Shown piece after piece: positions 16,544 to 31,337 of a DNA stretch of 64,000 bases. Both the position numbers and the translations under genes were made by a program. The notes below the pieces were generated by a model. It was not told where the DNA came from. It saw only the letters and a program-made list of their open reading frames with translations, and ran no database searches. This DNA comes from Caenimonas sp. (GTDB lineage Bacteria > Pseudomonadota > Gammaproteobacteria > Burkholderiales > Burkholderiaceae_C): positions 1,798 through 65,797 of the forward strand of contig JBEIPU010000003.1 in the NCBI GenBank assembly GCA_040376925.1. The letters are read 5' to 3'. Position 1 is the stretch's first letter, and the number at the start of each line of letters is the position of its first letter.

Positions 16544-17410
16544 ATGATCAGCTTTTCACCGTCCCGAACCTTCAAGGTCATGATGACCTGCGCCGTGATT
16601 TGCTTTGGCGGGTTATCGCACGCGCAGCAGGTCTTTCGCGTCACCACCATCCCCGAAGAAGCCGCCACCGAGCAGGTGCGCAAGTTCACGCCGCTGGCCA
16701 GCTACCTGGAAAAGCAGCTGGGCGTGAAGGTGGAGTTCACGCCGGTCAGCGATTACCCCGCCGCGGTCGAAGCGCTGGTGAACAAGAAGGTGGACCTGGT
16801 GTGGTTCGGCGGCTTCACCTTCGTGCAGGCCAACCTGCGCTCGGGCGGCAAGGTCGTGCCCATCGCCCAGCGCGAGGAAGACACCAAATTCCAGTCGGTT
16901 TTCATTGCCAAGACCGACTCGGGCATCAAGACCCTGAACGACATGAAGGGCAAGCAGGTTTCATTCGGCTCGCAAAGCAGCACCTCGGGCCACCTGATGC
17001 CGCGCAGCTTCCTGCTGCAGGCCAGCATCAACCCGGAAAAGGATTTCAGGCGCATCGCCTACAGCGGCGCGCATGACGCCACCATTGCCTCGGTGGTCAG
17101 CGGCAAGGTGGACGCCGCCGCGCTGGACATCACGGTGTGGCGCAAGTTCGTGGGCGAGAACAAGGTGGACACCAAGGCCGTGGACGTGTTCTACACCACG
17201 CCGGGCTACTTCAACTACAACTGGTCGGTGCATGCCGACATGCCGGCCGACATGCAGGCCAAGGTCAAGGCCGCGCTGCTGGCGCTGAACCCCGCGGACG
17301 CCGCGCAGGGCGAGATCCTCAAGCTCAACCGCGCGACGCGCTACATCGCCACCACGCCCGACAACTACAAGGGCCTGGAAGCCGCCGCGCGCAGCGCCGG
17401 CCTGCTGTAA
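16544..17410 (+). CDS. PhnD-like periplasmic binding protein (putative selenate ABC transporter SBP)
   Basis: AGGAG SD and signal peptide. PhnD-fold motifs DLVWFGGFTFVQA and FGSQSSTSGHLMP. Context next to selD/sen genes. Confidence 0.75.
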   Translation: MISFSPSRTFKVMMTCAVICFGGLSHAQQVFRVTTIPEEAATEQVRKFTPLASYLEKQLGVKVEFTPVSDYPAAVEALVNKKVDLVWFGGFTFVQANLRSGGKVVPIAQREEDTKFQSVFIAKTDSGIKTLNDMKGKQVSFGSQSSTSGHLMPRSFLLQASINPEKDFRRIAYSGAHDATIASVVSGKVDAAALDITVWRKFVGENKVDTKAVDVFYTTPGYFNYNWSVHADMPADMQAKVKAALLALNPADAAQGEILKLNRATRYIATTPDNYKGLEAAARSAGLL

Positions 17411-17434
17411 GGCACACACGTAAGGCATACACCC

Positions 17435-18268
17435 TTGCGCATCGAGCTTCAAGGCGTCGCGGCCCGCCACCCGGCCGCGCGCGCCGGTGCCGCACCGGCG
17501 CTGCAGCCGCTGGACCTGGCCATTGCCGCTGGCGAACAGGTGGCCGTGATCGGCCCGTCAGGCGCGGGCAAGACCACACTGCTGCAGGTGCTGGCCTGCG
17601 CGCTCAGGCCTGGCGCCGGGCGCATGCAGCTGGATGCGCAGGACCCATGGCAGCTGCCCCGCAGCGAGCTGCAGCGCCTGCGCGGGCGGCTGTTCCTGGC
17701 GCCGCAGGTGCCGCCGCTGCCGCCACGCCAGCGTGTGGTCACGTCGGTGCTGGCCGGGCGGCTGCCCGCCATGGGCCTGCTGGCCAGCGTGCGCTCGCTG
17801 TTCTACCCCAGCGACATCCCGGCTGCCTACGAGGCGCTGGAGCGTTTTGACCTGTCAGACAAGCTGTTTGAGCGGGTGGACCGCCTGTCGGGCGGCGAAC
17901 GCCAGCGCGTGGGCCTGGCCCGTGCGCTGCTGGCGCCCGCCAGCCTGTGGCTGGTGGACGAGCCGCTGTCGGCGCTGGACCCGTCGCGCTCGCGCCAGGC
18001 GGTCGCCACGCTGGTGGACGGTGCGCGCGAGCGCGGCGCCACGCTGGTGGCCACGCTGCACCAGGTGGACGTGGCGCTGGCGAACTTCCCGCGCATCATC
18101 GGCCTGCGCGACGGCGCACTGGCGTTTGACCTGCGCGCGGGCGACGTGACGCGCGAGCGGCTGGCTGCGCTGTACGACCAGCACGAACACGAGCTGCGCG
18201 GTGATGCGCCGGTGGCACTGCCGGATGTCGACGCCGCGCCCCAGCCCGTGGTCATGCACTGCCGCTGA
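17435..18268 (+). CDS. PhnC-like ABC transporter ATP-binding protein
   Basis: Walker A GPSGAGKTT, signature LSGGERQRV, Walker B LWLVDEP. TTG start. Confidence 0.85.
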   Translation: MRIELQGVAARHPAARAGAAPALQPLDLAIAAGEQVAVIGPSGAGKTTLLQVLACALRPGAGRMQLDAQDPWQLPRSELQRLRGRLFLAPQVPPLPPRQRVVTSVLAGRLPAMGLLASVRSLFYPSDIPAAYEALERFDLSDKLFERVDRLSGGERQRVGLARALLAPASLWLVDEPLSALDPSRSRQAVATLVDGARERGATLVATLHQVDVALANFPRIIGLRDGALAFDLRAGDVTRERLAALYDQHEHELRGDAPVALPDVDAAPQPVVMHCR

Positions 18269-18275
18269 CCCCCGC

Positions 18276-19118
18276 ATGAATGCAACCACCGCCCCTTTGC
18301 GCCGCGCGCCGGACCGCGACCCGGCCTGGCTGTCGCGGCTCTTGCTGATCAGCGCGCTCGTGGTGGTGCTGTGGCCGCTGGGCGTGGCCACCGAATTCCG
18401 CCCCTGGGTGCTGCTGGAACCAGACAACCTCAAGATCAGCGCGCAGTTCATCGGCAGCTTCTGGCCGCTGGCCTTCAGCGGTGAATTCCTGGCCATGGTG
18501 GCGCGCGACACCTGGCGCACCGTGGCCATGGCCACCGCCGGCGTCACGCTGGCGCTGGTCATTGCCATACCGCTCACGCTGCTGTCCACGCGCGTGCTGT
18601 CGGTGTCGGCCCTGTCCGGGCGCATGGCGCGCGGGCCGTTCTGGCTGCGCCAGGCCATGCGGTGGCTGCTGATCGTGCTGCGCAGCATCCCCGAGCTGGT
18701 GTGGGCGCTGGTGTTTGTGCGTGTGGTGGGCCTGGGGCCCACGGCCGGCGTGCTGGCCATTGCGCTGACCTACGGCGGCATGCTGGGCAAGGTCTATGGC
18801 GAGATTCTGGAAAGCGGCGAACACCACGCCACCGAAACCCTGCTGCGCAACGGCTCGGGCCGCCTGCAGGCCTTCCTGTTCGGCCTGCTGCCCACCAACG
18901 CGGCGGAACTGACCAGCTACACCGTGTACCGCTGGGAATGCGCGATCCGCTCGTCGGTGGTGTTGGGCTTTGTGGGCGCGGGCGGCCTGGGCCAGCAGCT
19001 GGACAACTCCATGAAGATGTTCAATGGCGGTGAAGTGGCCAGCATGCTGCTGGTGTTCATTGCACTCGTCGCCCTGGCCGACCGCGTCAGCGCCTGGCTT
19101 AGAAAAGCGTTGGGATAG
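18276..19118 (+). CDS. PhnE-like ABC transporter permease 1
   Basis: ATG 18276, 7 nt after the ATPase stop. Polytopic, with LRSIPELVWALVF motif. Confidence 0.8.
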   Translation: MNATTAPLRRAPDRDPAWLSRLLLISALVVVLWPLGVATEFRPWVLLEPDNLKISAQFIGSFWPLAFSGEFLAMVARDTWRTVAMATAGVTLALVIAIPLTLLSTRVLSVSALSGRMARGPFWLRQAMRWLLIVLRSIPELVWALVFVRVVGLGPTAGVLAIALTYGGMLGKVYGEILESGEHHATETLLRNGSGRLQAFLFGLLPTNAAELTSYTVYRWECAIRSSVVLGFVGAGGLGQQLDNSMKMFNGGEVASMLLVFIALVALADRVSAWLRKALG

Positions 19119-19122
19119 ACCG

Positions 19123-19950
19123 ATGACCCCACCCCGCGCCGCCAACACGCCGTACAAGCTGCCGCCGCCGCTGTTTGATGCGCGCTGCCGTGCCTGCTGG
19201 TTCACGCTGGCAATCGTCGTGCTGGTGGTGGCGAGCTTCTGGTCACTCAACCTGCAGTGGAAGCAGTTTCTGTCGCTGGACGCCGCGCGCAGCATGGGCA
19301 AGTTCCTGGGCGAATTTTTCCCGCCCGACCTGTCGCCCGCGTTCGTGACCAAGGTGGCCATCGGCGCCTGGGAAACGTTGGCCATGTCGGCGCTGGGCAC
19401 GCTGCTGGCCGTGGCCGGCGGGCTGGCGCTGGCGCTGCCGGCCAGCCGGCTGCACCAGGGCGACGCCGCCCGCACGCGTGGCGCCACGCGGCTGGTGCTG
19501 AACGCGCTGCGCAGCATCCCCGAGCTGGTGTGGGCCGCGCTGCTGCTGATCTCGGCCGGCCTGGGCCCGTTTGCCGGCACGCTGGCGCTGGCGCTGCACA
19601 CCACCGGCGTGCTGGGCCGCCTGTTTGCCGAAGCCATCGAGAACGCGCCCGCGGGCCCCGGCGATGCGCTGCGCGCACAGGGCGTGGGCAATGGCCGCGT
19701 GTTCCTGTATGCCACCTTGCCGCAGGTGCTGCCGCAGCTCATGAGCTACACCCTGTACCGCTGGGAAAACAACATCCGCGCTGCCGCCGTGCTGGGCGTG
19801 GTGGGCGCGGGCGGTCTGGGCCAGCTGCTGGCCTTTCACATGGGCCTGTTCCAGATGGGCAAGACAGCCACCATCCTGGGCGCGATGCTGCTGATGGTGG
19901 TGCTGGTGGATGCATTGAGTTATGTCTGGCGTCGCGCACTCATGCGCTGA
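19123..19950 (+). CDS. PhnE-like ABC transporter permease 2
   Basis: ATG 19123, 4 nt after the permease 1 stop. Paralogous LRSIPELVWAALLL motif. Confidence 0.8.
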   Translation: MTPPRAANTPYKLPPPLFDARCRACWFTLAIVVLVVASFWSLNLQWKQFLSLDAARSMGKFLGEFFPPDLSPAFVTKVAIGAWETLAMSALGTLLAVAGGLALALPASRLHQGDAARTRGATRLVLNALRSIPELVWAALLLISAGLGPFAGTLALALHTTGVLGRLFAEAIENAPAGPGDALRAQGVGNGRVFLYATLPQVLPQLMSYTLYRWENNIRAAAVLGVVGAGGLGQLLAFHMGLFQMGKTATILGAMLLMVVLVDALSYVWRRALMR

Positions 19951-19960
19951 AAGGGTTCCC

Positions 19961-20623
19961 ATGCGTGCCTGGCTGATCCGAACTCTGATACTGGCCGGCG
20001 CCGCGCTGCTGTCGGCCTGCGGCACACCCTATGCCACCGTGCCTAACAAGGCAGGCGAGCCCGTGATGCTGCTGGGCCATGACCCGGTGGCGTACTTCAC
20101 CCAGGGCAAGCCGGTGCGCGGCACGCCGGCCAACAAGGTGAGCCTGCCTGAGCGCACCTATTACTTTGCCAGCGCCGAACACCAGCGCCTGTTCCAGGCC
20201 GACCCGGCCAGGTACGAGCCGCAGTACGGCGGCTTTTGCGCCAGCGGCGCGGCCTTTGCCATCAAGCTGGGCAGCGACCCCACGGCCTGGCAGATCTACA
20301 ACGGCCGCCTGTTCATCTTCGGCGACGCCTTGGGCCAGACCGCCTGGGCCGTGGACCCGGCCTGGAACGTGGGCCATGGCGACCGCCTGTGGCCGGGCAT
20401 ACAGGACAAGGGTTGGCGGGCTGCATCGCTTGCGGCCTACACCAGCAAGGTACCCCACTACAAAACCGGTGCACAGATCAAGGCCGAACACGAAGCCAAA
20501 AACCCCGGCCAACCCTGGCCTGCCTACAACCCGGGCGGCATGGTGACCAACCTGTTCTTGAAGCGGCCTGGCTGGCGTGCGGCTGAGGGGTTTGGGCAGC
20601 CTGCGGTGGGGTATCCGGAGTAA
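19961..20623 (+). CDS. YHS domain-containing lipoprotein (Cys form of the YHS (seleno)protein family)
   Basis: ATG 19961, 10 nt after the permease stop. Lipobox LLSAC. HDPVAYF and QYGGFCASG motifs (TGC codon). Confidence 0.7.
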   Translation: MRAWLIRTLILAGAALLSACGTPYATVPNKAGEPVMLLGHDPVAYFTQGKPVRGTPANKVSLPERTYYFASAEHQRLFQADPARYEPQYGGFCASGAAFAIKLGSDPTAWQIYNGRLFIFGDALGQTAWAVDPAWNVGHGDRLWPGIQDKGWRAASLAAYTSKVPHYKTGAQIKAEHEAKNPGQPWPAYNPGGMVTNLFLKRPGWRAAEGFGQPAVGYPE

Positions 20624-20674
20624 TTTTCTCCGGCTGACAGCGCCCGTCCCGCCGGGCGCCTCAGCCGGAGAAAA
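20624..20674. terminator. 51-nt compound palindrome filling the spacer between the convergent YHS genes
   Basis: Perfect 14-bp arms TTTTCTCCGGCTGA / TCAGCCGGAGAAAA enclosing a 7-bp inner stem GCGCCCG/CGGGCGC. There is no free U-tail on either strand. Confidence 0.55.
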
Positions 20675-20676
20675 GA

Positions 20677-21273
20677 TTACTTCCGAGCCTTCGCATCCGC
20701 AACCATCTTCGCCAGCTCTTCACCGCTTTTGTAATGCGGCACGCGCAGCACCATGCGCTTGCTGCGCTGGATGAAGCTGTTGCTGCCGCTGACTTCTTCC
20801 TTCCAGTACTTGTCGGCCATCGCAACGTTGGCTTTCTCGTCGAGCAGGAAGGCGTCCATGGAGCCGCGCCCGCCGAAGATGTACAGCTTGCCGTCCACCA
20901 TCTTCCAGGTGTCTGCGTCGCCGCCCCAGGGGATGCCGTAGACGATGCCGTTGGCGCAATAGCCGCCGTACTGGGGCAGGTACTTGGCGGGCTCCTTGTC
21001 AAACAGCGCCTTGTGTTCGGCGCTGGCAAAGCGGAAGTCCACGCCCTGGTAGCTGCTGCGGTATTGCGGGCTGCCCTGGGCGAACTTGCCCTGGGTGAAG
21101 TAGGCCACCACGTCGGCGCCCTTGAGCATCAGGCGGCCTTCGGGGTTGTCGGCCACGGCGTTCACGGGCTTGAGCGTGCCCGAGGGGTTTTGCGCGGTGA
21201 TGGCGCCGCAGCCGGCCAGGGCGGCCACCAGGATGGCAGCGCCGCCGGTGCGCAGCAGGACAGAAGAGGTCAT
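20677..21273 (-). CDS. YHS domain-containing lipoprotein, paralog 2
   Basis: Lipobox LAGC. ADVVAYF and QYGGYCANG motifs (TGC codon). ATG overlaps the ATP-grasp stop (ATGA). Confidence 0.7.
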   Translation of the reverse strand: MTSSVLLRTGGAAILVAALAGCGAITAQNPSGTLKPVNAVADNPEGRLMLKGADVVAYFTQGKFAQGSPQYRSSYQGVDFRFASAEHKALFDKEPAKYLPQYGGYCANGIVYGIPWGGDADTWKMVDGKLYIFGGRGSMDAFLLDEKANVAMADKYWKEEVSGSNSFIQRSKRMVLRVPHYKSGEELAKMVADAKARK

Positions 21274-22664
21274 GGGAAAGTCTCCGGGGTTGTAGGTTCA
21301 GTGTGACGTGGAGTGTGAGCCCTGCCGGGGCCCGGCAGTTCCCGCCCCGGTGCGTGGGCATGCAGGTCGGCATACGGCGGCGTCCAGCCCAGCAACGAGC
21401 TGGCCACCTCGCAGCGCCGGCGCAGGTCGGCCGCGTCGGCACCGCCCAGGTGCACGATGCCGTAGCGGTGGCTGCCCAGCCATTTGAAGTCGCGCGCCAC
21501 CGAGCCCGCGGTTTTGGGGAACTCCAGCAACAGCGCGTCGGGGTAGGCCTCGTGGAACACCTGGCGCTGCAAGGCCGTGGGTACCGGCGGCGCGCGCCAC
21601 GGGTCGAACAGCCGGTACACAAAGCTCGCCGCAGCGCCTGCCGTGGGCGTGCGGCGCGGCACAGCCGCCGGGTCCTGCCCGTGGGCCAGCGCAAACGCCA
21701 TGTCGTGCAGGTTGATGCCGTCCACGCGCTGGTACAGGTCCGAGAACTGCGACGCCAGGCGCGGGTTGAACTCAATCACCGTGACGCGGCCGGTGGCCGG
21801 GTCATGGAAAAACTCCATGTTGAACATGCCGTGGGTGAAGCCCACCTCGGCCAGGAAACGGCGCGCGACGTCGGCCGCGCGCGCCACCACATCCGCGGGC
21901 AGGCGGGTGGGGTAGTCAAACCGCATGAACGATTCCGTGCCCGGGTACATCTGGATGTCCACACACCCCAGCAGGTGCATCTGGCCGCCCTGCACATAGC
22001 CGTCCAGGCAGTACTGCGGCGCGTCCACCACGGCTTCGGTCATCAGGCTGTGGGCCGTGCCGGCCTCGGGCAGGCGCTTGGCCACGACGCGTTCAAACGG
22101 CTCGACCAGGTGGCGGATGACCCACAGCTCCCAGGCACCAAAACGGGTGTGGGCATGAAGTTCGTCGTGGCTCTTCACGGTGCGCGCCAGCACCGAAAAG
22201 GCCGCCTTCACCGGCTTGACGAACAGCGGGTAGGCCAGGCCCTGTGGCACCGGGCCGCCGTATTTCGCATCAAGCCGTGCAAACGGCGGGTTGGCGTCGG
22301 GGCAGATGCGCTGCAGCACCTCGCGCGCGTACAGCTTGTGCTGGCAGGCCAGCACGGCCTTGACCGGCGTGCCGGGCCAGCCCATGCGCTCGGCCAGCAG
22401 CGCGGCGGCCAGCGCGCCAAACTGCTCGTGGTTGGACACCACGGCCTTCAGGCCCATGCGCCGGGCGCGGCGCGCCCACAGCGCCACAAAGCGGTCCATG
22501 TCAAACCAGGCCAGCCGTGCGTTGCTGGGAAAGCTGAACAGGTCAAAGCCTGCGCTGATGTGCGGCCAGCGCTGCGCCAGCCGGGCAAATTCGCGCTGGT
22601 CCCAGTCGTAGTTGAACAGGACCAGCGTGGCGGGGTGGTGGGAGTGCATGGGGGGCTTACGCAT
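21270..22664 (-). CDS. ATP-grasp domain protein
   Basis: ATG 22664 (1-nt overlap with the upstream stop) or ATG 22649. ATP-grasp core YPLFVKPVKAAFS ... VIEFNPRLASQF. Confidence 0.7.
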   Translation of the reverse strand: MRKPPMHSHHPATLVLFNYDWDQREFARLAQRWPHISAGFDLFSFPSNARLAWFDMDRFVALWARRARRMGLKAVVSNHEQFGALAAALLAERMGWPGTPVKAVLACQHKLYAREVLQRICPDANPPFARLDAKYGGPVPQGLAYPLFVKPVKAAFSVLARTVKSHDELHAHTRFGAWELWVIRHLVEPFERVVAKRLPEAGTAHSLMTEAVVDAPQYCLDGYVQGGQMHLLGCVDIQMYPGTESFMRFDYPTRLPADVVARAADVARRFLAEVGFTHGMFNMEFFHDPATGRVTVIEFNPRLASQFSDLYQRVDGINLHDMAFALAHGQDPAAVPRRTPTAGAAASFVYRLFDPWRAPPVPTALQRQVFHEAYPDALLLEFPKTAGSVARDFKWLGSHRYGIVHLGGADAADLRRRCEVASSLLGWTPPYADLHAHAPGRELPGPGRAHTPRHTEPTTPETFP

Positions 22665-23392
22665 CAGGGGGCGAGCTGGATGTCGGCGATCCAGGCCAGG
22701 CTGCGCGCGCCGGTGTTGTCGGCGTCGGCGCCTACCGCCACCGCCTGCAACGGGGGCAGGGTGGGGCTTTCGCTGCCGAACAGGCGGGCAAAGTCGGCCT
22801 GGAGGTTGCGCTGGTGGCTGCGCCACTGGCCGGTCGGGCTGGCGGCGCCGTCCAGCACCAGGTAGCGCACCCGGGCTGAATACGCATTGGGCAGCACGGT
22901 GCCCTGCGCCAGGGTCACGTCCCACACATAGCAGACGGTGGCAGCCGGCAGGGGCTCGCCCGACACGGCGCGTGCCAGGCGCAGCAGGCTGCGCTCCACG
23001 AACGGCACGCGGTCCAGCGGCATGTCAAACATCAGGCAGACCTTGAGCGCGGCGTCATCAGCGTCCTTGCGGCGCAGGTCGGCCCCTGCCACGGGCTGGT
23101 CCAGCCGCCAGCGCCAGCGCAGCGTGGCCTCGCGGCCGGCCAGCCAGCCGTTCAGGTCGTGCACCAGGCTGGCGTACGACGCGTCGGCACGCAGTCGCAG
23201 CGCGGGCGCGCCGTCCAGCGTGGCGATGTCCATGGCAGTGAGCGGCGCCTTGTTGTTTGGCAGGCCCACGGTGCGCCACGCTGCCGCTGCCAGCGGTGCC
23301 AGCAGCGGCCCATGCTGCGCGGGCTGGGCCAGCGCGCTAGCGGCCCAGATCGTTAAGAGACCAGTCGTAGTCCAGGTGCGTGATCGGAACAT
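22664..23392 (-). CDS. DUF3047 domain protein, secreted
   Basis: Signal peptide MFRSRTWTTTGLLTIWAASALAQP. DDAALKVCLMFD and CYVWD motifs recalled for DUF3047. Confidence 0.65.
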   Translation of the reverse strand: MFRSRTWTTTGLLTIWAASALAQPAQHGPLLAPLAAAAWRTVGLPNNKAPLTAMDIATLDGAPALRLRADASYASLVHDLNGWLAGREATLRWRWRLDQPVAGADLRRKDADDAALKVCLMFDMPLDRVPFVERSLLRLARAVSGEPLPAATVCYVWDVTLAQGTVLPNAYSARVRYLVLDGAASPTGQWRSHQRNLQADFARLFGSESPTLPPLQAVAVGADADNTGARSLAWIADIQLAP

Positions 23393-24155
23393 TGCGGGCC
23401 CTGATTTTCTCGCGGTCGGCCGGTGCGTCGGCCAATTGGTCGGCGTAGCGTGCCATCACGTCTTCCAGCTTGTTGAAACCCTTGTGGCCTTTTTCAAAGT
23501 CTTCGCGGAACCACTTGAAGATCATGTTGACCTGCAGCTTGCCGTCGGCATAGCGGTTGCGGGTGCGGTCGCCCATGAAGCGCAGCATGCCGTCGTCCAG
23601 CTGCGCGTCCAGCCTGGCCGCCACAAAGGCCTCGGGCCGCAGCGCCGGGCAGCCGATGCTGGCGCAGTTGACGGCGGCGTGCACGCGTGGCTCGCTGTAC
23701 CGGGGGCGCAGCTGCTCGTGCTCGATCCAGTCCAGGTGGCGCGGCTCGCCCAGCAGGGTGAAGAACTTGTTCTTCCACGGCGACTGCAGCAGCGAGCCCA
23801 GGTCCTTGATCGACTTGAGGCCGGGGTATTTGGTCAGGATCAGCTCCACGGTGAAGCCGTTGTAGGCGTTGATCAGGAACGCCATCTGCTGCTCGCGCGG
23901 CAGCGCGGCAAACTGCGCGGGCGTCACGGCCGACCATTCGGCCAGCACGGCCTTGAGCGCGGCGCGGTCGGCGGCAAAGCCCTTGTAGTCCACGCGCGAC
24001 TGCTTGTTGTCGGGCAGCCATTTCACATGCTTTTTGAGCAGGGCGTCCCAGGCGGCGTAGCCGGTGTCCAGCGCGGCGGCCGGGGCCCAGGCCGCGGGCG
24101 CGGCTGCAGCGAGCGCGCCGGTGGCGATGAGGTGCAGGGCGGTGCGGCGCTTCAT
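23337..24155 (-). CDS. DUF547 domain protein, secreted
   Basis: ATG 24155 gives signal peptide MKRRTALHLIATGALAAAAPAAWA. ATG 24194 would overlap the upstream stop (ATGA). FLINAYNGFT and HAAVNCASIGCPAL motifs. Confidence 0.7.
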   Translation of the reverse strand: MKRRTALHLIATGALAAAAPAAWAPAAALDTGYAAWDALLKKHVKWLPDNKQSRVDYKGFAADRAALKAVLAEWSAVTPAQFAALPREQQMAFLINAYNGFTVELILTKYPGLKSIKDLGSLLQSPWKNKFFTLLGEPRHLDWIEHEQLRPRYSEPRVHAAVNCASIGCPALRPEAFVAARLDAQLDDGMLRFMGDRTRNRYADGKLQVNMIFKWFREDFEKGHKGFNKLEDVMARYADQLADAPADREKIRARNVPITHLDYDWSLNDLGR

Positions 24156-24190
24156 GGTGTCGGCCTTGCGGAGTTGGAGTGGGTGGGCGT

Positions 24191-26353
24191 TCATCTGCGC
24201 TTCCAGTCGTGGTATTTGCGCACCCATTGCAGCAGCTGGTGCGGCTGGTGTGCGCGCTTCCATTCACCGGCGGCGTATTTGTTGGCCTCTGACAGCGTGG
24301 GGTAGGTGTGGATGGTGCCCAGCATCTTGTTCAGGCCCAGGCCGTGTTTCATGGCCAGCACGTATTCAGCCAGCAGGTCGCCTGCGTGCGTGCCCACGAT
24401 GGTCACGCCCAGGATGGTGTCCTTGCCCGGCATGGTCAGCACCTTCACAAAGCCATGGGCTTCGCTGTCGGCAATCGCGCGGTCCAGGTCGTCAATGCCG
24501 TATTTCGTGACTTCATAGGCAATGTTCTTTTCCTTCGCGTCCTGCTCGTTCAGGCCCACGCGCGCGACCTCGGGGTCAATGAACGTGGCCCAGGGGATCA
24601 CGCTGTAGTCCGCCTTGAATTTCTTGAAGTCGCCAAACAGCGCATTCACCGCCGCGTACCAGGCCTGGTGCGCCGCCACATGGGTGAACTGGAACGGGCC
24701 CGCCACGTCGCCCGCCGCATAGATGTTGGGGTAGATCGTCTGCAGGTACTCGTTGGTATCCACCGTCTTCTGCGTGGGGATGCCCAGATCCTCCAGGCCG
24801 TAGCCCGTCAGGCGCGCCGTGCGGCCCACGGCGCACAGCAGCGCGTCAAAGGCAATGCGCTTTTCGGCTCCGTTGTGTTCCACCACCAGCACCTTGGTCT
24901 CACCCTCACGTTCGCAGCGCAGCGCCTTGTGGCCGGTCAGCACCTGTACGCCGTCGGCTGTGAGCGCGTCGCGCGCCAGGGCCGAGACCTCAACGTCTTC
25001 GCGGATCATGATGCGCGCGGCCATCTCCACCTGTGTGACCTGCGAGCCCAGCCGCGCGAAGCTTTGCGCCAGCTCGCAGCCGATCGGCCCGCCGCCCAGC
25101 ACCACCAGGCGCTGGGGGATGTCGTCCAGCTGGGCAAAGGTGCTCCACAGCGTGTCACTGGTCACGTAGCCCACGTCCTGAAGCCCCGGCAGCGGCGGCA
25201 CAAAGGGGCGGGCGCCGGCGGCAATGACGATGTTGCGCGTGGTCACCACCTGTTTGCCGCCGCCGTTCAGCGCCACCTCCACCGTCCAGGGGTTGATGAT
25301 CTTGGCGTAGCCCTGCAGCACCTCCACGCCCAGACTGGTGTAGCGCTCCACGCTGTCGTGCGGCTCGATCGCGGCGATCACGTCGTGGATGCGCTGCATC
25401 ACCGCGCGGAAGCTGAAGGTGGGTGCGGCGTCGTTCAGACCGTAGCGGTGAGCGTGGCGCATCTGGTGCGCCAGCTTGGCGCTCTTGATCAGTGCCTTGC
25501 TGGGCACGCAGCCGTAGTTCAGGCAGTCGCCGCCCATCTTGTGGGCTTCCACCAGCGTGACCCTGGCCTTGACCGCCGCGGCAATGTAGGCCGACACCAG
25601 CCCGCCCGCGCCCGCGCCGATCACCACCAGGTTGCGGTCAAATGTCTTGGGCCGCACTGCGCGCCAGCGCGCATAGACCTTGCGCTTTTGCACGGCCTCA
25701 ACAAGCTTGCGCGCCACCAGCGGAAAGATGCCCAGCAGCACAAAAGAACCCAGCAGCCCCGGCGACAGGATGCCGCGCAGCGATTCAATCTGCGCCAGCT
25801 GCGTGCCCGCGTTCACAAACACCGCCGTGCCCGCCAGCATGCCCAGCTGGCTGACCCAGTAAAACGTCCAGGCCCGCATCTGGGTCAGGCCCATCACCAG
25901 GTTGATCACAAAAAACGGCACAACCGGGATCAGCCGCAGCGTGAACAGGTAAAACGCGCCGTCTTTCTGCACGCCGCGGTTGATTTCGGCCAGCCGGTTG
26001 CCAAAGCGTGCCTCGATGCTGTCGCGCAACACAAACCGCGCCACCAGGAACGCCAGCGTCGCGCCCGCGCTGGACGCAAAAGACACGACCAGCAGCCCCC
26101 AGCCCAGGCCAAAGATCGCGCCGCCGGCCAGCGTAAGGATGGTGGCGCCGGGCAGTGACAACGCCGTGGCCGCGACATAGATCAGGAAATAAGTGCCGGC
26201 CACCAGCAGCGGCCGTGTCTGCACCAGCGCGGCAAACTGCGACTGGCTCTGCTTGAGGTAGTCCAGGCTCAGGAACCGGCCCAGGTCCAGCGCGAAAAAG
26301 GCGGCAACCGCCGCCACGACCAGCACGACAAGGACGATTTTTTTGGTGTTCAT
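24191..26353 (-). CDS. TVP38/TMEM64 membrane domain fused to class-I pyridine nucleotide-disulfide oxidoreductase
   Basis: N-terminal polytopic domain (DGAFYLFTLRLIPVVPFFVINLVMG). Then VVIGAGAGG, redox CLNYGCVPSK, second Rossmann VVLGGGPIGCE, and HTYPTLSE in the dimerisation domain. Confidence 0.85.
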   Translation of the reverse strand: MNTKKIVLVVLVVAAVAAFFALDLGRFLSLDYLKQSQSQFAALVQTRPLLVAGTYFLIYVAATALSLPGATILTLAGGAIFGLGWGLLVVSFASSAGATLAFLVARFVLRDSIEARFGNRLAEINRGVQKDGAFYLFTLRLIPVVPFFVINLVMGLTQMRAWTFYWVSQLGMLAGTAVFVNAGTQLAQIESLRGILSPGLLGSFVLLGIFPLVARKLVEAVQKRKVYARWRAVRPKTFDRNLVVIGAGAGGLVSAYIAAAVKARVTLVEAHKMGGDCLNYGCVPSKALIKSAKLAHQMRHAHRYGLNDAAPTFSFRAVMQRIHDVIAAIEPHDSVERYTSLGVEVLQGYAKIINPWTVEVALNGGGKQVVTTRNIVIAAGARPFVPPLPGLQDVGYVTSDTLWSTFAQLDDIPQRLVVLGGGPIGCELAQSFARLGSQVTQVEMAARIMIREDVEVSALARDALTADGVQVLTGHKALRCEREGETKVLVVEHNGAEKRIAFDALLCAVGRTARLTGYGLEDLGIPTQKTVDTNEYLQTIYPNIYAAGDVAGPFQFTHVAAHQAWYAAVNALFGDFKKFKADYSVIPWATFIDPEVARVGLNEQDAKEKNIAYEVTKYGIDDLDRAIADSEAHGFVKVLTMPGKDTILGVTIVGTHAGDLLAEYVLAMKHGLGLNKMLGTIHTYPTLSEANKYAAGEWKRAHQPHQLLQWVRKYHDWKRR

Positions 26354-27471
26354 GTGTTCTCCTGCAACCTGCCGGCCAGGCGCAAACCGCCCATTGGAGC
26401 ATAGCCAGCGCGTGAGGCCATGGCCGGTTGCGGGACGGTGAAGCGGTAGAAGAAGTTGCCGTCGCGCACCGGGTGCTCACCCGTCACATGCTCGATCAGC
26501 CCGAAGCGCAGCAGGCGGTTGAGCAGGATCTCGGCCTCATGCGATCGCAGCTTGAGCCGCCGGGCCAGCCACTGCACGGCCTCGGCCCCCACAAAGCAGC
26601 GCGCGTAGGTGGTGCCCAGGTAGGTCCGGTCTTTCACGTCCAGGCCCGAAGGCTGGCTCACCAGGGCATACACCGCGCCCAGGTTCCAGCGGTCCACGGC
26701 GCTGGCCAGCGTGGGGCGGTAAAAGTTGGGCAGGTCGGCAAACGGCTGTTCATGCACCACATGCTGCAGCAGGTCCAGCGCCTGCAGGTCCAGCCCCAGG
26801 CGTACGGCGGCCGGCCGCTTGAGCTTGAAGCGGTTGCCCAGCCAGTCCACCACCTCGGTGCCGGTGTGGCACGACGGGTAGGTCTTGAAGTGGTACATGC
26901 GGTCGATGGCCTTGACGTGGCTGGCCATGGCGTGGCACAGCGCCTCGGCCGTGAGGCCGGTGGCGCGGCGGATGCGGTGGCGCGGCGCGGCATCGTCCAG
27001 CTTGACCTGCATGGCACTGAAGTACTGGGCCAGCGCCTCGGGCGGCAGCGGCGGTGCGCCTGCCAGGCGCGCCAGGCATTCCACCAGCGGCTGGCCCGGC
27101 TGTGCCAGCGACACCGGGTCCAGGTCGGCCCACAGCCCGGCAAAGCCCAGCTCCAGCGCCCAGGCCTGCTCGGTGGGCCACAGCCCGGCCAGCTCGCGCG
27201 TGAGCACGACGCGGGCACGGCGCTGGGGATCGGGCAGCGCCGCAGCCAGGGCGATCAGGCTGGAGGCCGCCGGGGCGATGGCCGCCATGTCAATCACGGC
27301 CACGCTGTGCGGCTGGGCCACCAGCGCGGCGTCCAGCCGGGCCAGCGCGTCGGGCCCGGCCACCAGGTCGGCCGGCGGCTGGCGCATGGCCATGCAGACA
27401 GCGCGCAGGGCCTGGCGGGCAGCGTCTGATGCCAGGCACAGCCAGACAGTGGGAGGCAGGGGGGTGTTCAT
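26350..27471 (-). CDS. tandem DEP-domain protein with receiver-like N-terminal region
   Basis: Two DEP-like repeats (YPSCHTGTEVVDWL...LLQHV...FYR and YARCFVGAEAVQWL...RSHEAEILLNRLLRFGLIEHV...FFYRF). Stop overlaps the next ATG (ATGA). Confidence 0.65.
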   Translation of the reverse strand: MNTPLPPTVWLCLASDAARQALRAVCMAMRQPPADLVAGPDALARLDAALVAQPHSVAVIDMAAIAPAASSLIALAAALPDPQRRARVVLTRELAGLWPTEQAWALELGFAGLWADLDPVSLAQPGQPLVECLARLAGAPPLPPEALAQYFSAMQVKLDDAAPRHRIRRATGLTAEALCHAMASHVKAIDRMYHFKTYPSCHTGTEVVDWLGNRFKLKRPAAVRLGLDLQALDLLQHVVHEQPFADLPNFYRPTLASAVDRWNLGAVYALVSQPSGLDVKDRTYLGTTYARCFVGAEAVQWLARRLKLRSHEAEILLNRLLRFGLIEHVTGEHPVRDGNFFYRFTVPQPAMASRAGYAPMGGLRLAGRLQENT

Positions 27472-27573: not shown

Positions 27574-27804
27574 CTAGATTCGCCAGTCGTTCCCGCGCAA
27601 GGGCTTGTCACGCACAGGCCATACGGGGCAAAGCATCTGCACCACTTCCATCAGGCTCAGCCACTCGGCAATGGGGTCATCGCCAGACGCCTTGTCCTGT
27701 TGCCGCTCAAAAGGTACCCCTGCCTCGCGTACCAGCACTGCATCTGCATTGGCGCGGTCTGACGCCGGGTCAGCGTCCGCACCGGCGTCACCCGAGGAGT
27801 TCAT
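27574..27804 (-). CDS. small hypothetical protein downstream of the nucleotidyltransferase
   Basis: 76-aa ORF from ATG 27804, overlapping the NTase stop by 17 nt. No recognisable motif. Confidence 0.3.
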   Translation of the reverse strand: MNSSGDAGADADPASDRANADAVLVREAGVPFERQQDKASGDDPIAEWLSLMEVVQMLCPVWPVRDKPLRGNDWRI

Positions 27805-28306
27805 CAAGGAGTTCCGGTTTGTCGAACAAGGAAAAGTATTCACGCAACTCATCCATGTCGAGCGAACCGCGGTGTACTTTAAGCAGTGCGCGAATGTCGT
27901 CCAGGTCGCGCGTTCGCGTTGCATCGTTCACGAAGCCCTGCAGCTTGAAGCCTATGAGTCCTTCGACGCTGATGATGCGCATGCGGCCCATGGGGGTTTC
28001 GCGCTCGGCCGCCTGCGCGAGCAGGCGGCGCGCCAGGGGGCGACGCGCGTACAGCAAATCCAGGCCTTCTGTAGCGCGCACATAGTTGGCGGCATCTTCA
28101 CTGCGGTACAGGCACTGGTAGCCCAAGCCCAGCAGTGCATCGTGCACCCGGTCCGCAGCTTCAGCCTCCACCAGAAAGTCCACATCCTGGGTGGCGCGCA
28201 CCACCTGGTGGGCAACCACTGCCAGGCCTCCGATCAATGCCGGTGCTGTACCGTTGCGCGTGAACATGCTCAGTGCTTCGCGGATTTGTTCGGCCAGGTT
28301 TGACAT
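27788..28306 (-). CDS. small nucleotidyltransferase-fold protein (minimal NTase, toxin-antitoxin-like)
   Basis: IGGLAVVAHQVVRATQDVDFLV matches the G-G...D-x-D pol-beta NTase signature. Local GC is visibly lower (63/120 G+C counted in 27781-27900). Confidence 0.55.
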   Translation of the reverse strand: MSNLAEQIREALSMFTRNGTAPALIGGLAVVAHQVVRATQDVDFLVEAEAADRVHDALLGLGYQCLYRSEDAANYVRATEGLDLLYARRPLARRLLAQAAERETPMGRMRIISVEGLIGFKLQGFVNDATRTRDLDDIRALLKVHRGSLDMDELREYFSLFDKPELLDELLG

Positions 28307-28404: not shown

Positions 28405-29934
28405 TTACGGGCGTACCGGCAACCGCAACGTCACCGCCGTCCCCACGCCTTCGCGACTGTCAACGCCCACCGTGCCGCCATGCAGCTCGGCAATGCGCTT
28501 GACGATGGCCAGGCCCAGGCCCTTGCCGCCCTCGCCGGTGGCCGGCGCCGCGCTGTGGCGGGCCTGGTAGAAGCGGTCGAACAGATGCGGCTGGTCCGCC
28601 GGCGCGATGCCGGCGCCGCTGTCGCTCACGCCCAGCAGCAGCCAGCCGTCGGCCTGGCGCGCCTGCAGCGTGATGCGCCCGCCCGCGGGGGTGAACTTCA
28701 GCGAGTTTTCCACCAGGTTAGCCAGCGCCCGCTCGATCAGCTCCACGTCCACCCGCGCATGCAGCGCGGTTTCCTGTGCCACCAGCGTCACGCCCTGGGC
28801 GCCGGCGCGCGCGGCAAAGCGCATGGCCACGTCATTGAGCAGGTCGTCCAGCGCCAGCTCTTCGGGACGCAGCTCAAACGCGGGTTCGTCCAGTTGGGCC
28901 AGGTCGCCCATGGCCTGCACCAGGCGCGCGGCGTTGCGGGTGTTGCGCAGGGCCACGCTGATCAACTCGCGGTCTGCGGTGCGGTCGCCATCGTGGCCGG
29001 TGGTGCGTTGCGGGTCGGACCAGCGGTTGTCCAGCGTCTCCAGGCAGGCCGTGGTGGCCGTCAGCGGCGAGCGCAGGTCGTGCGACAGGTTGCTGACCCC
29101 TTCGCGGCGGAAATGGTCCAGCCGGCGCAGCGTGACCCACTGGCTGCGCAGCGTCTGCAGCATGGCCTGCATGCCGCGCGCCAGCTGGCCAAATTCATCA
29201 CGCGCGTCGGTGCCCGGCACCTGCGCCAGCGCGGGCAGGGGCGCGGCGGGGGCGGGGCCGTCCAGGCCGTCACGCGTCACGTCGCTCACGGCCGCCGTCA
29301 GGCGCGCCAGCGGGCGCGTGACGGTGGCCGTGACCCAGGCCGCCAGCACCGCCATGCCCACCACCACCAGCAAAATCATCATCAGCCCCGGCTGCGCCAG
29401 CGTGCCGCGCAGTGTGGCCACGCGGTCGGCGCTGAAGGGCATGGGCTGGCACACGAAGTACAAAAATCCGTCCACTGCAGCGTCGGGGCGGATCGACTGC
29501 TGGCGCAGCGGCCGCGCCGCCACCACGGCCGGCTTGGCCGGGTCGGCCGGGTCGGTGCCCATGACGTAGGTGACCGGAGCGGCACCGGCCGCCTGGCGCA
29601 CTGGTGCCATGGGCACGCGGTAGCCGGGCGGCAGGCTCACGTCGCCCGACGCCGCCAGTACCGCGCCCTGGGCGTCCAGCAGGTACAGGCGCACGCCGGG
29701 CTCGTACAGCACCAGGTTGCGCAAAAAGGCCGCCACCTGGTCGGGCGCGCGGCGGTGGCTTTCCAGCAGCTCGGGGTGCTGCTGCGCCACGCGCTGCAAA
29801 AAGGCGTCGGCCCGCTGGTAGGCCGATTCGTACTCAAACCGCTGGAACGCCAGCACCACCGTCACCAGCACGCCAATGGCGGTCAGCAGCCCCGCCAGCA
29901 AAATCGTCAGCGCGATCTTCAGGCGCACGCTCAT
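28405..29934 (-). CDS. sensor histidine kinase (two TM, HAMP, HisKA, HATPase)
   Basis: ATG 29934 overlaps the response-regulator stop (ATGA). H-box SNLSHDLRSPLT, N-box LVENSLKFTP, G-boxes DSGAGI and GKGLGLAI. Confidence 0.85.
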   Translation of the reverse strand: MSVRLKIALTILLAGLLTAIGVLVTVVLAFQRFEYESAYQRADAFLQRVAQQHPELLESHRRAPDQVAAFLRNLVLYEPGVRLYLLDAQGAVLAASGDVSLPPGYRVPMAPVRQAAGAAPVTYVMGTDPADPAKPAVVAARPLRQQSIRPDAAVDGFLYFVCQPMPFSADRVATLRGTLAQPGLMMILLVVVGMAVLAAWVTATVTRPLARLTAAVSDVTRDGLDGPAPAAPLPALAQVPGTDARDEFGQLARGMQAMLQTLRSQWVTLRRLDHFRREGVSNLSHDLRSPLTATTACLETLDNRWSDPQRTTGHDGDRTADRELISVALRNTRNAARLVQAMGDLAQLDEPAFELRPEELALDDLLNDVAMRFAARAGAQGVTLVAQETALHARVDVELIERALANLVENSLKFTPAGGRITLQARQADGWLLLGVSDSGAGIAPADQPHLFDRFYQARHSAAPATGEGGKGLGLAIVKRIAELHGGTVGVDSREGVGTAVTLRLPVRP

Positions 29935-30647
29935 GCAGCAGTGGCCTCCCGCATGCGGTAGCCCGCCCCCCGCACGGTCAGGATGATCTGGGGCTTGAGC
30001 GGGTCGGCCTCCAGCTTGGCGCGCAGGCGGTTGATGTGGGTGGTGACGGTGTGCTCGTAGCCGTCGTGGGTGTAGCCCCACACGGCGTTGAGCAGCTGCC
30101 CGCGCGAAAACACCCGCCCCGGGTGGCGTGCAAAGTGCAGCAGCAAATCAAATTCCAGCGCGGTGAATTCCATGACACCGCCGCGCAGGCGCACCTGGCG
30201 CTTGGCCGGCTGGATCTCCAGCTCGCCGTTGGTGATGGGGGCATCCGCCGGCGCGGCCCCGGGGGCGCTGGCGGCACGCACCAGCTCGGCGCGACGCAGC
30301 AGCGCCTTCACGCGCGCCAGCAGCTCGGCCAGGGAGAACGGCTTGGTCAGGTAATCGTCGGCGCCCAGCTCCAGGCCCAGCACGCGGTCCAGCTCGGTGG
30401 ACTTGGCCGTGAGCATCAGGATGGGGGTGGCGCAGCCGCGTGCGCGCAGGGCCTTGCACACGTCCAGGCCGTCCATGTGCGGCATCATCAGGTCCAGCAC
30501 CAGCAGGTCGGCCGGCTGGCGGTCCTGCGCGGCCAGGGCCTCGCGCCCGTCGCTGGCCTGCACCACGTCGTAGCCCGCGCCCTGCAGGTTGAGCGCCAGC
30601 AGGTCCCGGATGTCGGTCTGGTCTTCGGCGATGAGGATGCGTTTCAT
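29931..30647 (-). CDS. OmpR-family response regulator
   Basis: MKRILIAEDQ...LLVLDLMMPHMDG...LTAK receiver and winged-helix C-terminus (TVRGAGYRM). ATG 30656 is an alternative start. Confidence 0.9.
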   Translation of the reverse strand: MKRILIAEDQTDIRDLLALNLQGAGYDVVQASDGREALAAQDRQPADLLVLDLMMPHMDGLDVCKALRARGCATPILMLTAKSTELDRVLGLELGADDYLTKPFSLAELLARVKALLRRAELVRAASAPGAAPADAPITNGELEIQPAKRQVRLRGGVMEFTALEFDLLLHFARHPGRVFSRGQLLNAVWGYTHDGYEHTVTTHINRLRAKLEADPLKPQIILTVRGAGYRMREATAA

Positions 30648-30661
30648 GGGCTCCATGGCCC

Positions 30662-30692
30662 GTGAGTCATGGCGGGGCCTGCTTTCTTACCC
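30662..30692 (-). promoter_or_regulatory. shared promoter-region box, copy B (upstream of the RR/HK operon)
   Basis: 30673-30692 CGGGGCCTGCTTTCTTACCC. See copy A. Confidence 0.35.
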
Positions 30693-30776
30693 AATTGTTA
30701 TCCAGTTGTGATCTTTCGTGAGGGCGGCGTGAGCCTGGGCGCCCACAGTCCATCCATCGACACCGAAGGACACACC

Positions 30777-31337
30777 ATGCAAGCCCCCACACCCGCCCAG
30801 ACCGACGCCCTGAACCCGCTTGACTGCGTGGTGGAGGGCGCCCAGCTGCACCCCCACCGCGCCTACCTGCTGCGCGTGGCCCGCAACAAGCTGCGCGACC
30901 CGGCGCTGGCCGAGGACGCAGTGCAGGATGTGTTCGAGGCCGTGCTGGCCGGTCGCGCCCGGTTTGGCGGGCGCAGCGCCCTGCGCACCTGGCTCACCGG
31001 CATCCTGCTGCACAAGGTGACCGACCTGCAGCGCCAGGGCATGCGCTACTGCGCGCTGGACGCCGGGCGTGACGACGATGACGAAGCTGCCGACGCGCAC
31101 GACACCGCCTGCGACGCCCCCGGCCCCGAAGACAGCGCCGGGCAGCGCGAGCTGCTGGCGCGCACGCTGGCCTGCATCGACCGCCTGCCCGCTGCGCTGC
31201 GCGACGTGATGTGGCGCCGCGCCATCCATGACGAGCCGACCGAAACCGTGTGCCGCCAGCTGGGCATCACGCCCGACGCGATGTTTGTGCGCCTGCACCG
31301 CGCCCGCCGCCAGATTGAAGCCGCCGTGCTGTGCTGA
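30777..31337 (+). CDS. ECF-type RNA polymerase sigma factor
   Basis: ATG 30777. Region 2 (AEDAVQDVFEAV...LRTWLTGILLHKVTD) and region 4 (LPAALRDVMWRR...QLGITPDAMFVRLHRARRQI). Confidence 0.8.
   Translation: MQAPTPAQTDALNPLDCVVEGAQLHPHRAYLLRVARNKLRDPALAEDAVQDVFEAVLAGRARFGGRSALRTWLTGILLHKVTDLQRQGMRYCALDAGRDDDDEAADAHDTACDAPGPEDSAGQRELLARTLACIDRLPAALRDVMWRRAIHDEPTETVCRQLGITPDAMFVRLHRARRQIEAAVLC

Follow-up and report, generated by a model that had tools for sequence, protein, structure and literature searches.

A TVP38/DedA-reductase fusion gene from a six-gene operon of Caenimonas sp. recurs in arsenosugar-type and selenium-linked gene neighbourhoods

The six-gene operon

The 64-kb stretch of DNA from Caenimonas sp. 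analysed here (contig JBEIPU010000003.1, ~68% G+C; hereafter the window) carries a six-gene operon, the second gene of which encodes a fusion of a TVP38/DedA membrane domain with an FAD-dependent reductase. The remaining genes encode a tandem-DEP protein (gene 1), a DUF547 protein (gene 3), a DUF3047 protein (gene 4), an ATP-grasp protein (gene 5) and a YHS lipoprotein (gene 6). In other genomes the conserved unit is the fusion accompanied by DUF547 and/or DUF3047, which is a hub for alternative modules, and the DEP, ATP-grasp and YHS genes are lineage-specific add-ons. The families themselves are known; what appears to be new here is a conserved but uncharacterised accessory module of organo-metalloid clusters, present in the window in a selenium-connected, six-gene form.

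The six minus-strand open reading frames (ORFs) extend from an ATG at 27471 to a stop at 20677, with strong third-position GC bias. Genes 1 and 2 as well as genes 5 and 6 overlap in an ATGA (26350-26353 and 21270-21273, respectively), genes 3 and 4 share 56 nt (23337-23392), and genes 4 and 5 meet in a TGATG at 22664. The junction of the fusion and DUF547 genes is either an ATGA (with ATG 24194 as the start) or a 35-nt gap (with ATG 24155); the latter is the most likely start, since the resulting 272 aa match the length of the homologues and begin with a signal peptide that has a Tat-like twin-arginine motif (MKRRTALHL). Pfam and the direct reading of the junctions bear out what the earlier note on this DNA had described, namely six spacer-poor ORFs with these domains and overlaps, and the six ORFs are predicted to be one translationally coupled operon.

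Other loci are given by label: L005-L084 are the 80 species loci of the census described below (one per species, with 10-kb flanks), among them L010, a Polaromonas metagenome-assembled genome (MAG); L001-L004 are relatives outside that set; L085 is the relative GCA_943372515.1, L088 is Escherichia coli K-12 (NC_000913.3, 1833401-1841403) and L090 is Rhodoferax sp. GCA_013297935.1. L085 has all six genes in the order of the window, with products 83-94% identical to those of the window (83% for the DEP protein, 92% for the fusion), and shares the ATGA between the DEP and fusion genes, the 56-nt overlap of DUF547 and DUF3047 and both candidate starts of the ATP-grasp gene (ATG 22664 and ATG 22649). 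Since L085 repeats both the genes and the overlaps, the packing is not peculiar to one assembly. L086 agrees with the layout of the window as far as its sequence reaches, with the DEP gene probably at its cut 5' end, and the order fusion>DUF547>DUF3047>ATP-grasp>YHS>YHS of L010 retains five of the six genes, its fusion being 77% identical to that of the window. The region is rearranged among close relatives (window versus L002, L085 and L087). Database matches at 95-98% identity bear the label Ramlibacter sp. MAG, in keeping with a Ramlibacter-like member of the Comamonadaceae.

Table 1. Positions of the operon genes and of other features in the window.
Feature	Position	Strand	Basis
Gene 1, tandem DEP	26350-27471	-	Pfam DEP
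Gene 2, VTT + Pyr_redox_2 + Pyr_redox_dim fusion	24191-26353	-	Pfam
Gene 3, DUF547	23337-24155 (alternative ATG 24194)	-	Pfam
Gene 4, DUF3047	22664-23392	-	Pfam
Gene 5, ATP-grasp_4	21270-22664 (alternative ATG 22649)	-	Pfam
Gene 6, YHS lipoprotein	20677-21273	-	Pfam YHS and NCBIfam NF041384
Palindrome/hairpin	20624-20674	.	51 nt, between two convergent YHS genes, at the 3' end of the operon
YHS (seleno)protein-family lipoprotein	19922-20623	+	NF041384, 105.3 bits (cut-off 70); last gene of the selenate-type ABC operon
PhnD/C/E-type ABC importer	16544-19950	+	TIGR04553 "putative selenate ABC" binding protein, 357 bits (cut-off 250); PhnC-like and PhnE-like subunits
EgtD	15413-16381	-	NCBIfam, over cut-off
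SenA	14226-15401	+	NCBIfam, over cut-off
SenB	13225-14223	-	NCBIfam, over cut-off
TIGR03169::SelD fusion	10934-13258	-	NCBIfam TIGR03169 and TIGR00476, over cut-offs
Patatin-like phospholipase	10013-10924	-	Pfam Patatin
Stand-alone TVP38 paralogue	9306-10016	-	Pfam VTT_dom
Sensor kinase and OmpR-type response regulator	28405-30656	-	NCBIfam: heavy-metal-sensor-type kinase (under cut-off), response regulator
ECF sigma factor, APH-like kinase, fused TIGR04283::TIGR04282, nucleoside-hydrolase-like protein	30669-34795	+	NCBIfam; APH-like kinase without NCBIfam name
YnjB/YnjC/YnjD-like ABC transporter	52517-55973	-	tblastn 46% (binding protein) and 37% (permease) with queries from related loci; Pfam ABC_tran, SBP_bac_8

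Neighbourhoods of the fusion gene

Full-length fusions form ~50 clusters at 50% identity, and across the genera of the Comamonadaceae the protein is >82% identical. The neighbourhoods of the fusion gene were scored in 80 species drawn from the Alpha-, Beta- and Gammaproteobacteria, Desulfobulbales and Oligoflexia, by tblastn with the proteins of the window and with representatives of neighbouring families (clustered de novo and named by NCBIfam); a Pfam census of crude nearest ORFs, whose counts are too low owing to errors of ORF calling in high-GC DNA, served as qualitative support only. At least one partner family is present in 62 of the 80 loci. The TIGR03169 oxidoreductase is found most often (27 loci), followed by DUF547 and a YnjF-like CDP-alcohol phosphatidyltransferase (21 each), ArsS and TIGR04283 (20 each), DUF3047 (19), TIGR04282 (18), an extracytoplasmic function (ECF) sigma factor and a YnjB-like binding protein (14 each), a YnjC-like permease (13), an ArsM-like protein (12), SenB (5) and SelD (4). 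DUF547 and/or DUF3047 occur in 32 loci, DUF547 standing immediately 3' of the fusion in ~20 species. The YHS, ATP-grasp and DEP genes lie near the fusion in two, one and none of the 80 loci, respectively, and the DEP gene was not found in L001-L004 either; by these counts the six genes together do not form a conserved system.

The neighbourhoods that have the fusion gene at their centre are of the arsenosugar type, the type with TIGR03169 (a partner of SelD), the selenoneine type and the type of the E. coli ynj genes. Any arsenosugar-type gene (ArsS, ArsM, TIGR04283 or TIGR04282) is present in 29 of the 80 loci, and ArsS or ArsM in 25. The common order is ArsS>fusion>TIGR04283>TIGR04282(>ArsM), with a gap of 16 nt between the ArsS and fusion genes in L014 and overlapping ORFs in L016. 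A YnjF-type CDP-alcohol phosphatidyltransferase (CDP-OH_P_transf) and/or a YnjBC-type ATP-binding cassette (ABC) transporter accompanies the fusion in 21 loci. In the Comamonadaceae the order is YnjB>YnjC>CDP-OH_P_transf>fusion>DUF3047>TIGR03169, and the Ynj-like transporter lies immediately upstream of CDP-OH_P_transf>fusion>DUF3047 in the orders from L005, L006, L007, L022, L030 and L038. The order is fusion>CDP-OH_P_transf>YnjB>YnjC in Alphaproteobacteria and Vibrionaceae, and TIGR03169>ECF>fusion>CDP-OH_P_transf in Sphingomonadales. The arsenosugar-type and Ynj-type contexts are nearly mutually exclusive (27 loci with only the former, 19 with only the latter and two with both), as though the two sets were alternative front ends to a single system. 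The Ynj-like transporter of the window is 26 kb away from the operon, and tblastn found no homologue of the YnjF/CDP-alcohol phosphatidyltransferase in the window.

The fusion protein

Residues ~1-215 of the fusion protein form a TVP38/DedA (COG0398-type VTT) membrane domain and residues ~238-720 a class-I FAD/NAD(P)H reductase, which has the motifs GGDCLNYGCVPSK and IHTYPTLSE. A positively charged linker (RKLVEAVQKRKVYARWRAVRPK) comes after the last hydrophobic segment, for which reason the reductase is probably cytoplasmic, where NAD(P)H is available. Fusions of COG0398 DedA domains to PF07992/PF02852 are the commonest fusions of their subfamily and have no assigned function (PMC10127716). 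Residue conservation was read from 41 aligned fusions (the protein of the window and 40 representatives, 34-67% identical to it over the full length). Both cysteines of a CxxxxC motif (C277 and C282), Y684 and P685 are near-invariant (at least 90% of the 41), and the window fusion has both the GGDCLNxGC and the C-terminal IHxYPTxxEA motif. The membrane domain has no conserved cysteine in the 41 fusions, on which ground a DsbD-like thiol relay through this domain was rejected. The stand-alone TVP38 protein, which had already been pointed out as a paralogue, is indeed 44% identical to the membrane domain of the fusion.

In the column of the catalytic His of LpdA the fusion has a Tyr (HAHPTLSEA in LpdA versus IHTYPTLSEA in the window), as does MerA. 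The best solved-structure match is MerA (5x1y, E=2.2e-70), with LpdA close behind (2eq6, E=1.2e-67), so that by sequence the reductase domain appears equidistant between the two. It scores under every curated equivalog cut-off of NCBIfam: 367.3 bits versus 454 for TIGR02053 (MerA), 386 versus 408.8 for TIGR01350, and values far under the cut-offs for the glutathione reductase (GR) models; RclA and hypothiocyanite reductase are also among its matches, well under their cut-offs. The name that NCBIfam gives to the fusion is generic and unrelated to arsenosugars, and it has no name for DUF547 or DUF3047; in one NCBI source P0079 is named "bifunctional TVP38/TMEM64 :: FAD-dependent oxidoreductase". 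An identity with MerA was rejected, as the score is below the cut-off and neither the C-terminal Cys pair of MerA (the tail of the window protein reads ...YAAGEWKRAHQPHQLLQWVRKYHDWKRR, with no Cys) nor the N-terminal metal-binding domain NmerA is present in the window fusion. Membership in the LpdA/GR type is likewise not supported, the His of the His-Glu dyad (HxHPTxSE) being replaced by Tyr and the scores lying under the cut-offs. The same substitution makes doubtful the label "disulfide reductase" under which the protein was first described. The loss of the acid-base His would argue against an ordinary disulfide substrate and would fit direct binding of a soft electrophile by the thiolates; for the Tyr-type active site, a soft metal or a metalloid seems a more fitting substrate than a disulfide.

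The selenium connection

The operon adjoins a putative selenate importer and the sen genes, as had been claimed; the NCBIfam models, which for the selenoneine cluster (10934-16381) are TIGR03169, TIGR00476, TIGR04348, NF041186 and TIGR03438, score over their cut-offs. In 5 of the 80 species selD/sen genes are found no more than 10 kb from the fusion, a count which, at the level of neighbourhoods, speaks against the general association with selD and senB that a selenium role would predict. Relatives with the fusion near selD/senB belong to Hydrogenophaga, Limnohabitans, Polaromonas and Ramlibacter, and show at least five different arrangements. L001, L005 and L038 have fusion>DUF3047>TIGR03169 ... 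selD<senB<senA>, L007 has fusion>DUF3047> <selD<TIGR03169<senB, and L002 and L087 have fusion>DUF3047> <transglutaminase<thioredoxin, followed by TIGR03169::selD>. The genes fusion>egtD>senB>TIGR03169>selD of L033 are all on one strand, with a gap of 84 nt after the fusion; L064 and the window provide further arrangements. That the arrangements change while the proximity stays argues for a functional tie to selenium in the Comamonadaceae. Furthermore, the oxidoreductases of TIGR03169 are a family whose definition rests on fusion to SelD, a fusion that the window also has, and the recurrent pairing of the fusion gene with TIGR03169 would be a Rosetta-stone link to SelD.

The association with arsenosugar-type genes is about six times commoner than that with selD/sen (29 versus 5 of 80). 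The selenium reading is plausible for the source genome and is not a general theme of the fusion family. The role in selenium or other chalcogen metabolism that the earlier note had proposed stands, in part, as follows: the operon sits in a metalloid island, its core recurs in such surroundings, TIGR03169 accompanies it in 27 loci, and both YHS proteins belong to NF041384. What does not stand is its generality, the commonest contexts being of the arsenosugar type (29 of 80) and the Ynj type (21 of 80), with selenium confined to certain lineages.

The partner proteins

The DUF547, DUF3047 and YHS proteins all bear export signals. DUF547 (272 aa, predicted exported, Pfam E=2.9e-21) has the motif NCASIGCP, in which C164 and C169 of the CxxxxC are invariant among 50 homologues. 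DUF3047 (242 aa, predicted exported, Pfam E=1.2e-53) has two invariant cysteines, C119 and C154. Sequence searches of the PDB with either protein returned nothing. The structure predictions and Foldseek comparisons that had been suggested for both were run and suggest a function for neither: the AlphaFold2 (AF2) model of DUF547 is helical (predicted local distance difference test, pLDDT, 75.7) and has no match in the PDB under E=0.87, and that of DUF3047 is a beta-jelly roll (pLDDT 88.6) with weak, generic matches to beta-sandwiches of GH12, GH11, a carbohydrate-binding module (CBM) and ENGase (TM 0.24-0.46).

Both families also occur without the fusion. In L090 a DUF547 protein (73% identical) is encoded together with DUF3179, a Cys-form YHS protein, DUF6969, thioredoxin, DsbD_TM and rubrerythrin (9001-15264). 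Genes for a response regulator, a kinase, an ECF sigma factor and an ABC-2 exporter lie upstream of this group. L090 is a second and independent case in which DUF547 is associated with YHS. The stand-alone reductase near this DUF547 gene was rejected as an orthologue of the fusion: it retains the catalytic His and is a glutathione reductase of the ordinary kind. In L089, DUF3047 follows a Ynj-like ABC transporter and CDP-OH_P_transf, and the fusion is absent.

The YHS lipoprotein of the operon (lipobox LAGC; PQYGGYC, of the pattern PQYGG[YF]C; NF041384, 112.9 bits, cut-off 70) keeps its Cys motif in the homologues of L010, L040, L085 and L090. The second YHS protein of the window was confirmed as its paralogue (35-38% identity). 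Both are Cys forms of NF041384, "YHS domain-containing (seleno)protein", a family that includes selenocysteine (Sec) forms; no Sec form was seen among the ArsS and YHS homologues inspected, all of which have Cys. The ATP-grasp protein (464 aa, or 459 aa from ATG 22649; cytoplasmic; Pfam ATP-grasp_4 E=1.6e-7) has as its sole PDB match the ATP-grasp domain of carbamoyl-phosphate synthetase (E=3.4e-5), and besides the window its gene is a neighbour of the fusion in L010, L085 and L086 alone.

The DEP protein is a cytoplasmic protein of 373 aa in which Pfam DEP matches two stretches (E=2.6e-33, 114 bits). Residues 175-345 match the tandem DEP of DEPTOR (7dkl, E=3.6e-19), and the N-terminal 174 aa (26950-27471) have no Pfam match. 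DEP domains in general are known to bind membranes and acidic lipids. A bacterial tandem-DEP protein that resembles DEPTOR is unusual, and among the loci compared only the closest relatives, L085 and probably L086, have the whole protein.

Relation to known systems

The genes of the arsenosugar neighbourhood (the radical SAM (seleno)protein ArsS TIGR04167, ArsM, TIGR04283 and TIGR04282) were formerly named "rSAM/selenodomain-associated"; NCBIfam names ArsS, TIGR04283 and TIGR04282 for arsenosugar biosynthesis. An orthologue of the fusion lies inside this cluster in 29 of the 80 species. The window differs from it in that no match to ArsS or ArsM was obtained by tblastn across the 64 kb, that an APH-like kinase and a nucleoside hydrolase stand beside the transferases, and that selenium genes lie on the opposite side. 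The fused TIGR04283::TIGR04282 gene of the window (32491-33801; 265.5 bits versus a cut-off of 182, and 198.5 versus 134) is ~5 kb upstream of the operon. The set of genes to which it belongs (30669-34795) may be a variant pathway with a different metalloid donor; it is kept in L002, L006, L085 and L087, and in L087 a set of this type is directly divergent from the fusion gene.

The selenoneine cluster of Variovorax paradoxus, with egtD plus a presumed transporter for selenate as optional members, has its counterpart in the senA, senB, senC (selD), egtD and TIGR04553 genes beside the operon (bioRxiv 10.1101/2022.04.13.486033). The sen cassette of the window (10934-15401) is complete, and the six operon genes are its neighbours, not members of the three defined sen genes; they are not mentioned in the paper on the sen cluster (bioRxiv 10.1101/2022.04.13.486033). 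SenC was assayed there with selenide (Na2Se), and the route by which selenide is supplied was not named (bioRxiv 10.1101/2022.04.13.486033).

The E. coli locus ydjX-ydjY-ydjZ-ynjA-ynjB-ynjC-ynjD-ynjE/ynjF likewise combines TVP38/DedA proteins with a YnjBCD ABC transporter and YnjF. The membrane domain of the window fusion is 33% identical to YdjX, and among the census loci the CDP-alcohol phosphatidyltransferase of L062 is 44% identical to YnjF, the binding protein of L069 41% to YnjB and the permease of L068 34% to YnjC. Unlike the fusion, the E. coli DedA proteins have no reductase, and YdjY, YnjA (AhpD-like) and YnjE (rhodanese) take the place of DUF547 and DUF3047. A literature search for the function of ydjX and ynjF returned nothing, and the census suggests why this locus has resisted annotation; it can serve as a tractable model of the parts other than the reductase. 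MerA shares with the fusion the CxxxxC motif and the Tyr at the column of the catalytic His; in contrast to MerA, the reductase of the window is fused to a DedA domain and lacks the C-terminal Cys pair and NmerA, and there is no mer operon.

The literature holds little on these families. No paper was found that ties the fusion, DUF547 or DUF3047 to arsenic or selenium, or that links TVP38/DedA to arsenosugars; DUF3047 is mentioned in a single metagenome-correlation paper, and mentions of DUF547 either concern plants or are incidental. The reference list of PMC10127716 includes a study in which a DedA protein is tied to selenite resistance (Ledgham 2005).

A putative module for the translocation and reduction of arsenic or selenium

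We tentatively propose, at somewhat less than even confidence, that the conserved core works as an accessory module for translocating and reducing arsenic or selenium species, with a connection to selenium in the source genome. From domains, conservation and neighbourhoods we infer the substrate, the direction in which it is moved and the role in reduction. The TVP38/DedA domain in the inner membrane would move an arsenic or selenium species, as an ion or as a sugar- or lipid-linked derivative, and the cytoplasmic NAD(P)H/FAD reductase would bring this species into, or keep it in, the reduced state for the biosynthetic enzymes. The exported Cys proteins DUF547 (with its CxxxxC) and DUF3047 (with its two invariant cysteines) would act together with the fusion core, which would place the module between periplasmic Cys proteins and cytoplasmic SelD/SenB or ArsM/ArsS, enzymes that need reduced substrates. 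In the source genome the core, located between the selenate importer and selenoneine genes and the arsenosugar-type glycosyltransferase set, would have been joined by three further proteins: a YHS lipoprotein in the periplasm, an ATP-grasp ligase, and a tandem-DEP protein at the membrane periphery.

Several observations weigh against this proposal. Eighteen of the 80 loci show no partner at all (seven of these are contigs of <10 kb). The five species with selD/sen near the fusion are all annotated as Comamonadaceae or are betaproteobacterial MAGs, and such loci, coming from related lineages, are not fully independent of each other. As the window lacks ArsS and ArsM, its link to arsenosugars is one of homologous context only. 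The AF2 models of DUF547 and DUF3047 yield no functional lead, and the two families occur without the fusion, DUF547 and YHS with thioredoxin and DsbD (L090), DUF3047 with YnjF and the ABC transporter (L089). Finally, DedA/TVP38 proteins are currently seen as scramblases of lipids or polyprenyl phosphates and not as ion carriers (PMC10127716), which favours a role of the module in lipid metabolism.

In such a lipid role, which we consider rather unlikely, the module would help to make an unusual membrane lipid, such as a phospholipid with an arsenosugar or selenosugar, and to flip it. Attachment of the head group would fall to a YnjF-type transferase, scrambling to the outer leaflet to the DedA domain, and processing in the periplasm to DUF547, DUF3047 and YHS; acidic lipid would be the docking site of the DEP protein, and the redox state of the head group would be adjusted by the reductase. 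The CDP-alcohol phosphatidyltransferase that adjoins the fusion in 21 of the 80 loci is consistent with this, as are the same pairing at E. coli ydjX/ydjZ...ynjF, the placement of DUF3047 after CDP-OH_P_transf even where the fusion is absent (L089), and the action of the DedA superfamily on lipids (PMC10127716). TIGR04283 and TIGR04282 resemble sugar or nucleotide transferases, SelD>patatin phospholipase>TVP38 paralogue stand on one strand in the window, and the jelly roll predicted for DUF3047 is weakly similar to carbohydrate-binding modules. DEP domains, such as those of Dishevelled and DEPTOR, are generally known as binders of acidic phospholipid. However, the operon of the window has no CDP-alcohol phosphatidyltransferase, and the arsenosugar-type and Ynj-type sets meet in two of the 80 loci only; a single pathway that uses both sets is unlikely because their contexts are nearly mutually exclusive. 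Moreover, we know of no arsenic- or selenium-sugar phospholipid in these bacteria, and the NAD(P)H reductase is left without an explained role.

Less likely again is a general module against thiol or oxidant stress in the envelope, under the control of an ECF sigma factor or a two-component system, which would repair or buffer periplasmic cysteines or detoxify reactive species and would owe its proximity to arsenic and selenium genes to shared regulation or to a common island. An ECF sigma factor near the fusion in 14 of the 80 loci, and a response regulator and kinase just upstream of the operon in the window and in L085 (in the latter 88 nt upstream of the DEP gene), agree with such control. 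The association of DUF547 and YHS with thioredoxin, DsbD_TM and rubrerythrin in L090, in the absence of the fusion, the thioredoxin-like and transglutaminase-core genes after the fusion and DUF3047 in L002 and L087, and the low-scoring NCBIfam matches to RclA and hypothiocyanite reductase point the same way. Stress alone, however, explains neither the presence of the fusion inside ArsS...ArsM operons, where it is 16 nt from ArsS (L014) or overlaps it (L016), nor its recurrent link to TIGR03169 and SelD, and the membrane domain lacks the conserved cysteines that a DsbD-like relay would need.

A more ambitious form of our translocate-and-reduce proposal is an envelope-spanning machine, made up of the fusion and the exported Cys proteins DUF547, DUF3047 and YHS, that imports selenium (elsewhere arsenic) and reduces it at the membrane to selenide or As(III), supplying SelD/SenC or ArsM/ArsS, or that, in an alternative version, makes and flips a selenium- or arsenic-sugar phospholipid in Proteobacteria; this we regard as a speculative and decidedly unlikely extension. 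Very improbable, finally, is the absence of any single functional unit, with DEP, ATP-grasp and YHS as unrelated passengers on the transcript of a conserved fusion/DUF547/DUF3047 core: their rarity near the fusion (0, 1 and 2 of 80) and the rearrangement of the region in close relatives would fit, but the six proteins are 83-94% identical in L085 with the same overlapping junctions, ATP-grasp and then YHS follow DUF3047 also in the more distant L010, and YHS is again found with DUF547 in L040 and L090.

This hub gives a concrete candidate and a set of partners for the genetics and biochemistry of arsenic and selenium handling. One gene makes testable the function of COG0398-reductase fusions, the supply of selenide to SenC, and the part played by those conserved genes of the arsenosugar clusters that have no known step.

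Other features of the window

The 51-nt palindrome that had been noted to close the unit was confirmed and folds very stably (-51.3 kcal/mol, z = -8.06), and falls short of the textbook terminator shape: on either strand the stem has the U-tract on its 5' side and the A-tract on its 3' side, with no 3' U-tract, and for this reason it is not a canonical intrinsic terminator. The layout of its tracts is the reverse of that of a bidirectional intrinsic terminator; protection of RNA 3' ends or binding of a protein are possible roles. A consensus scan of the operon found no sigma-70-like promoter, and the terminator-like matches are weak and not clearly above expectation (10 versus 5.7 +/- 2.5 in shuffled sequences), nine of the ten being inside the coding sequence of the operon.

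The patatin-like phospholipase and the TVP38 paralogue lie directly 3' of the SelD fusion on the same strand and share four bases (10013-10016). It is unexpected to find a lipase and a protein of the lipid-scramblase type paired with a selenophosphate synthetase, and L002 and L087 have neither gene at the corresponding site. Between the sensor kinase and the DEP gene, on the minus strand (27574-28306), are a gene for an NTP_transf_5/DUF2204-like nucleotidyltransferase of 172 aa and a small downstream ORF, which look like an inserted toxin-antitoxin-like pair; the pair is also present in L002-L004 and is missing in L085. A SulP-family sulfate permease with a STAS domain, encoded at 44154-45986 on the minus strand, could be an alternative entry for selenate or selenite.

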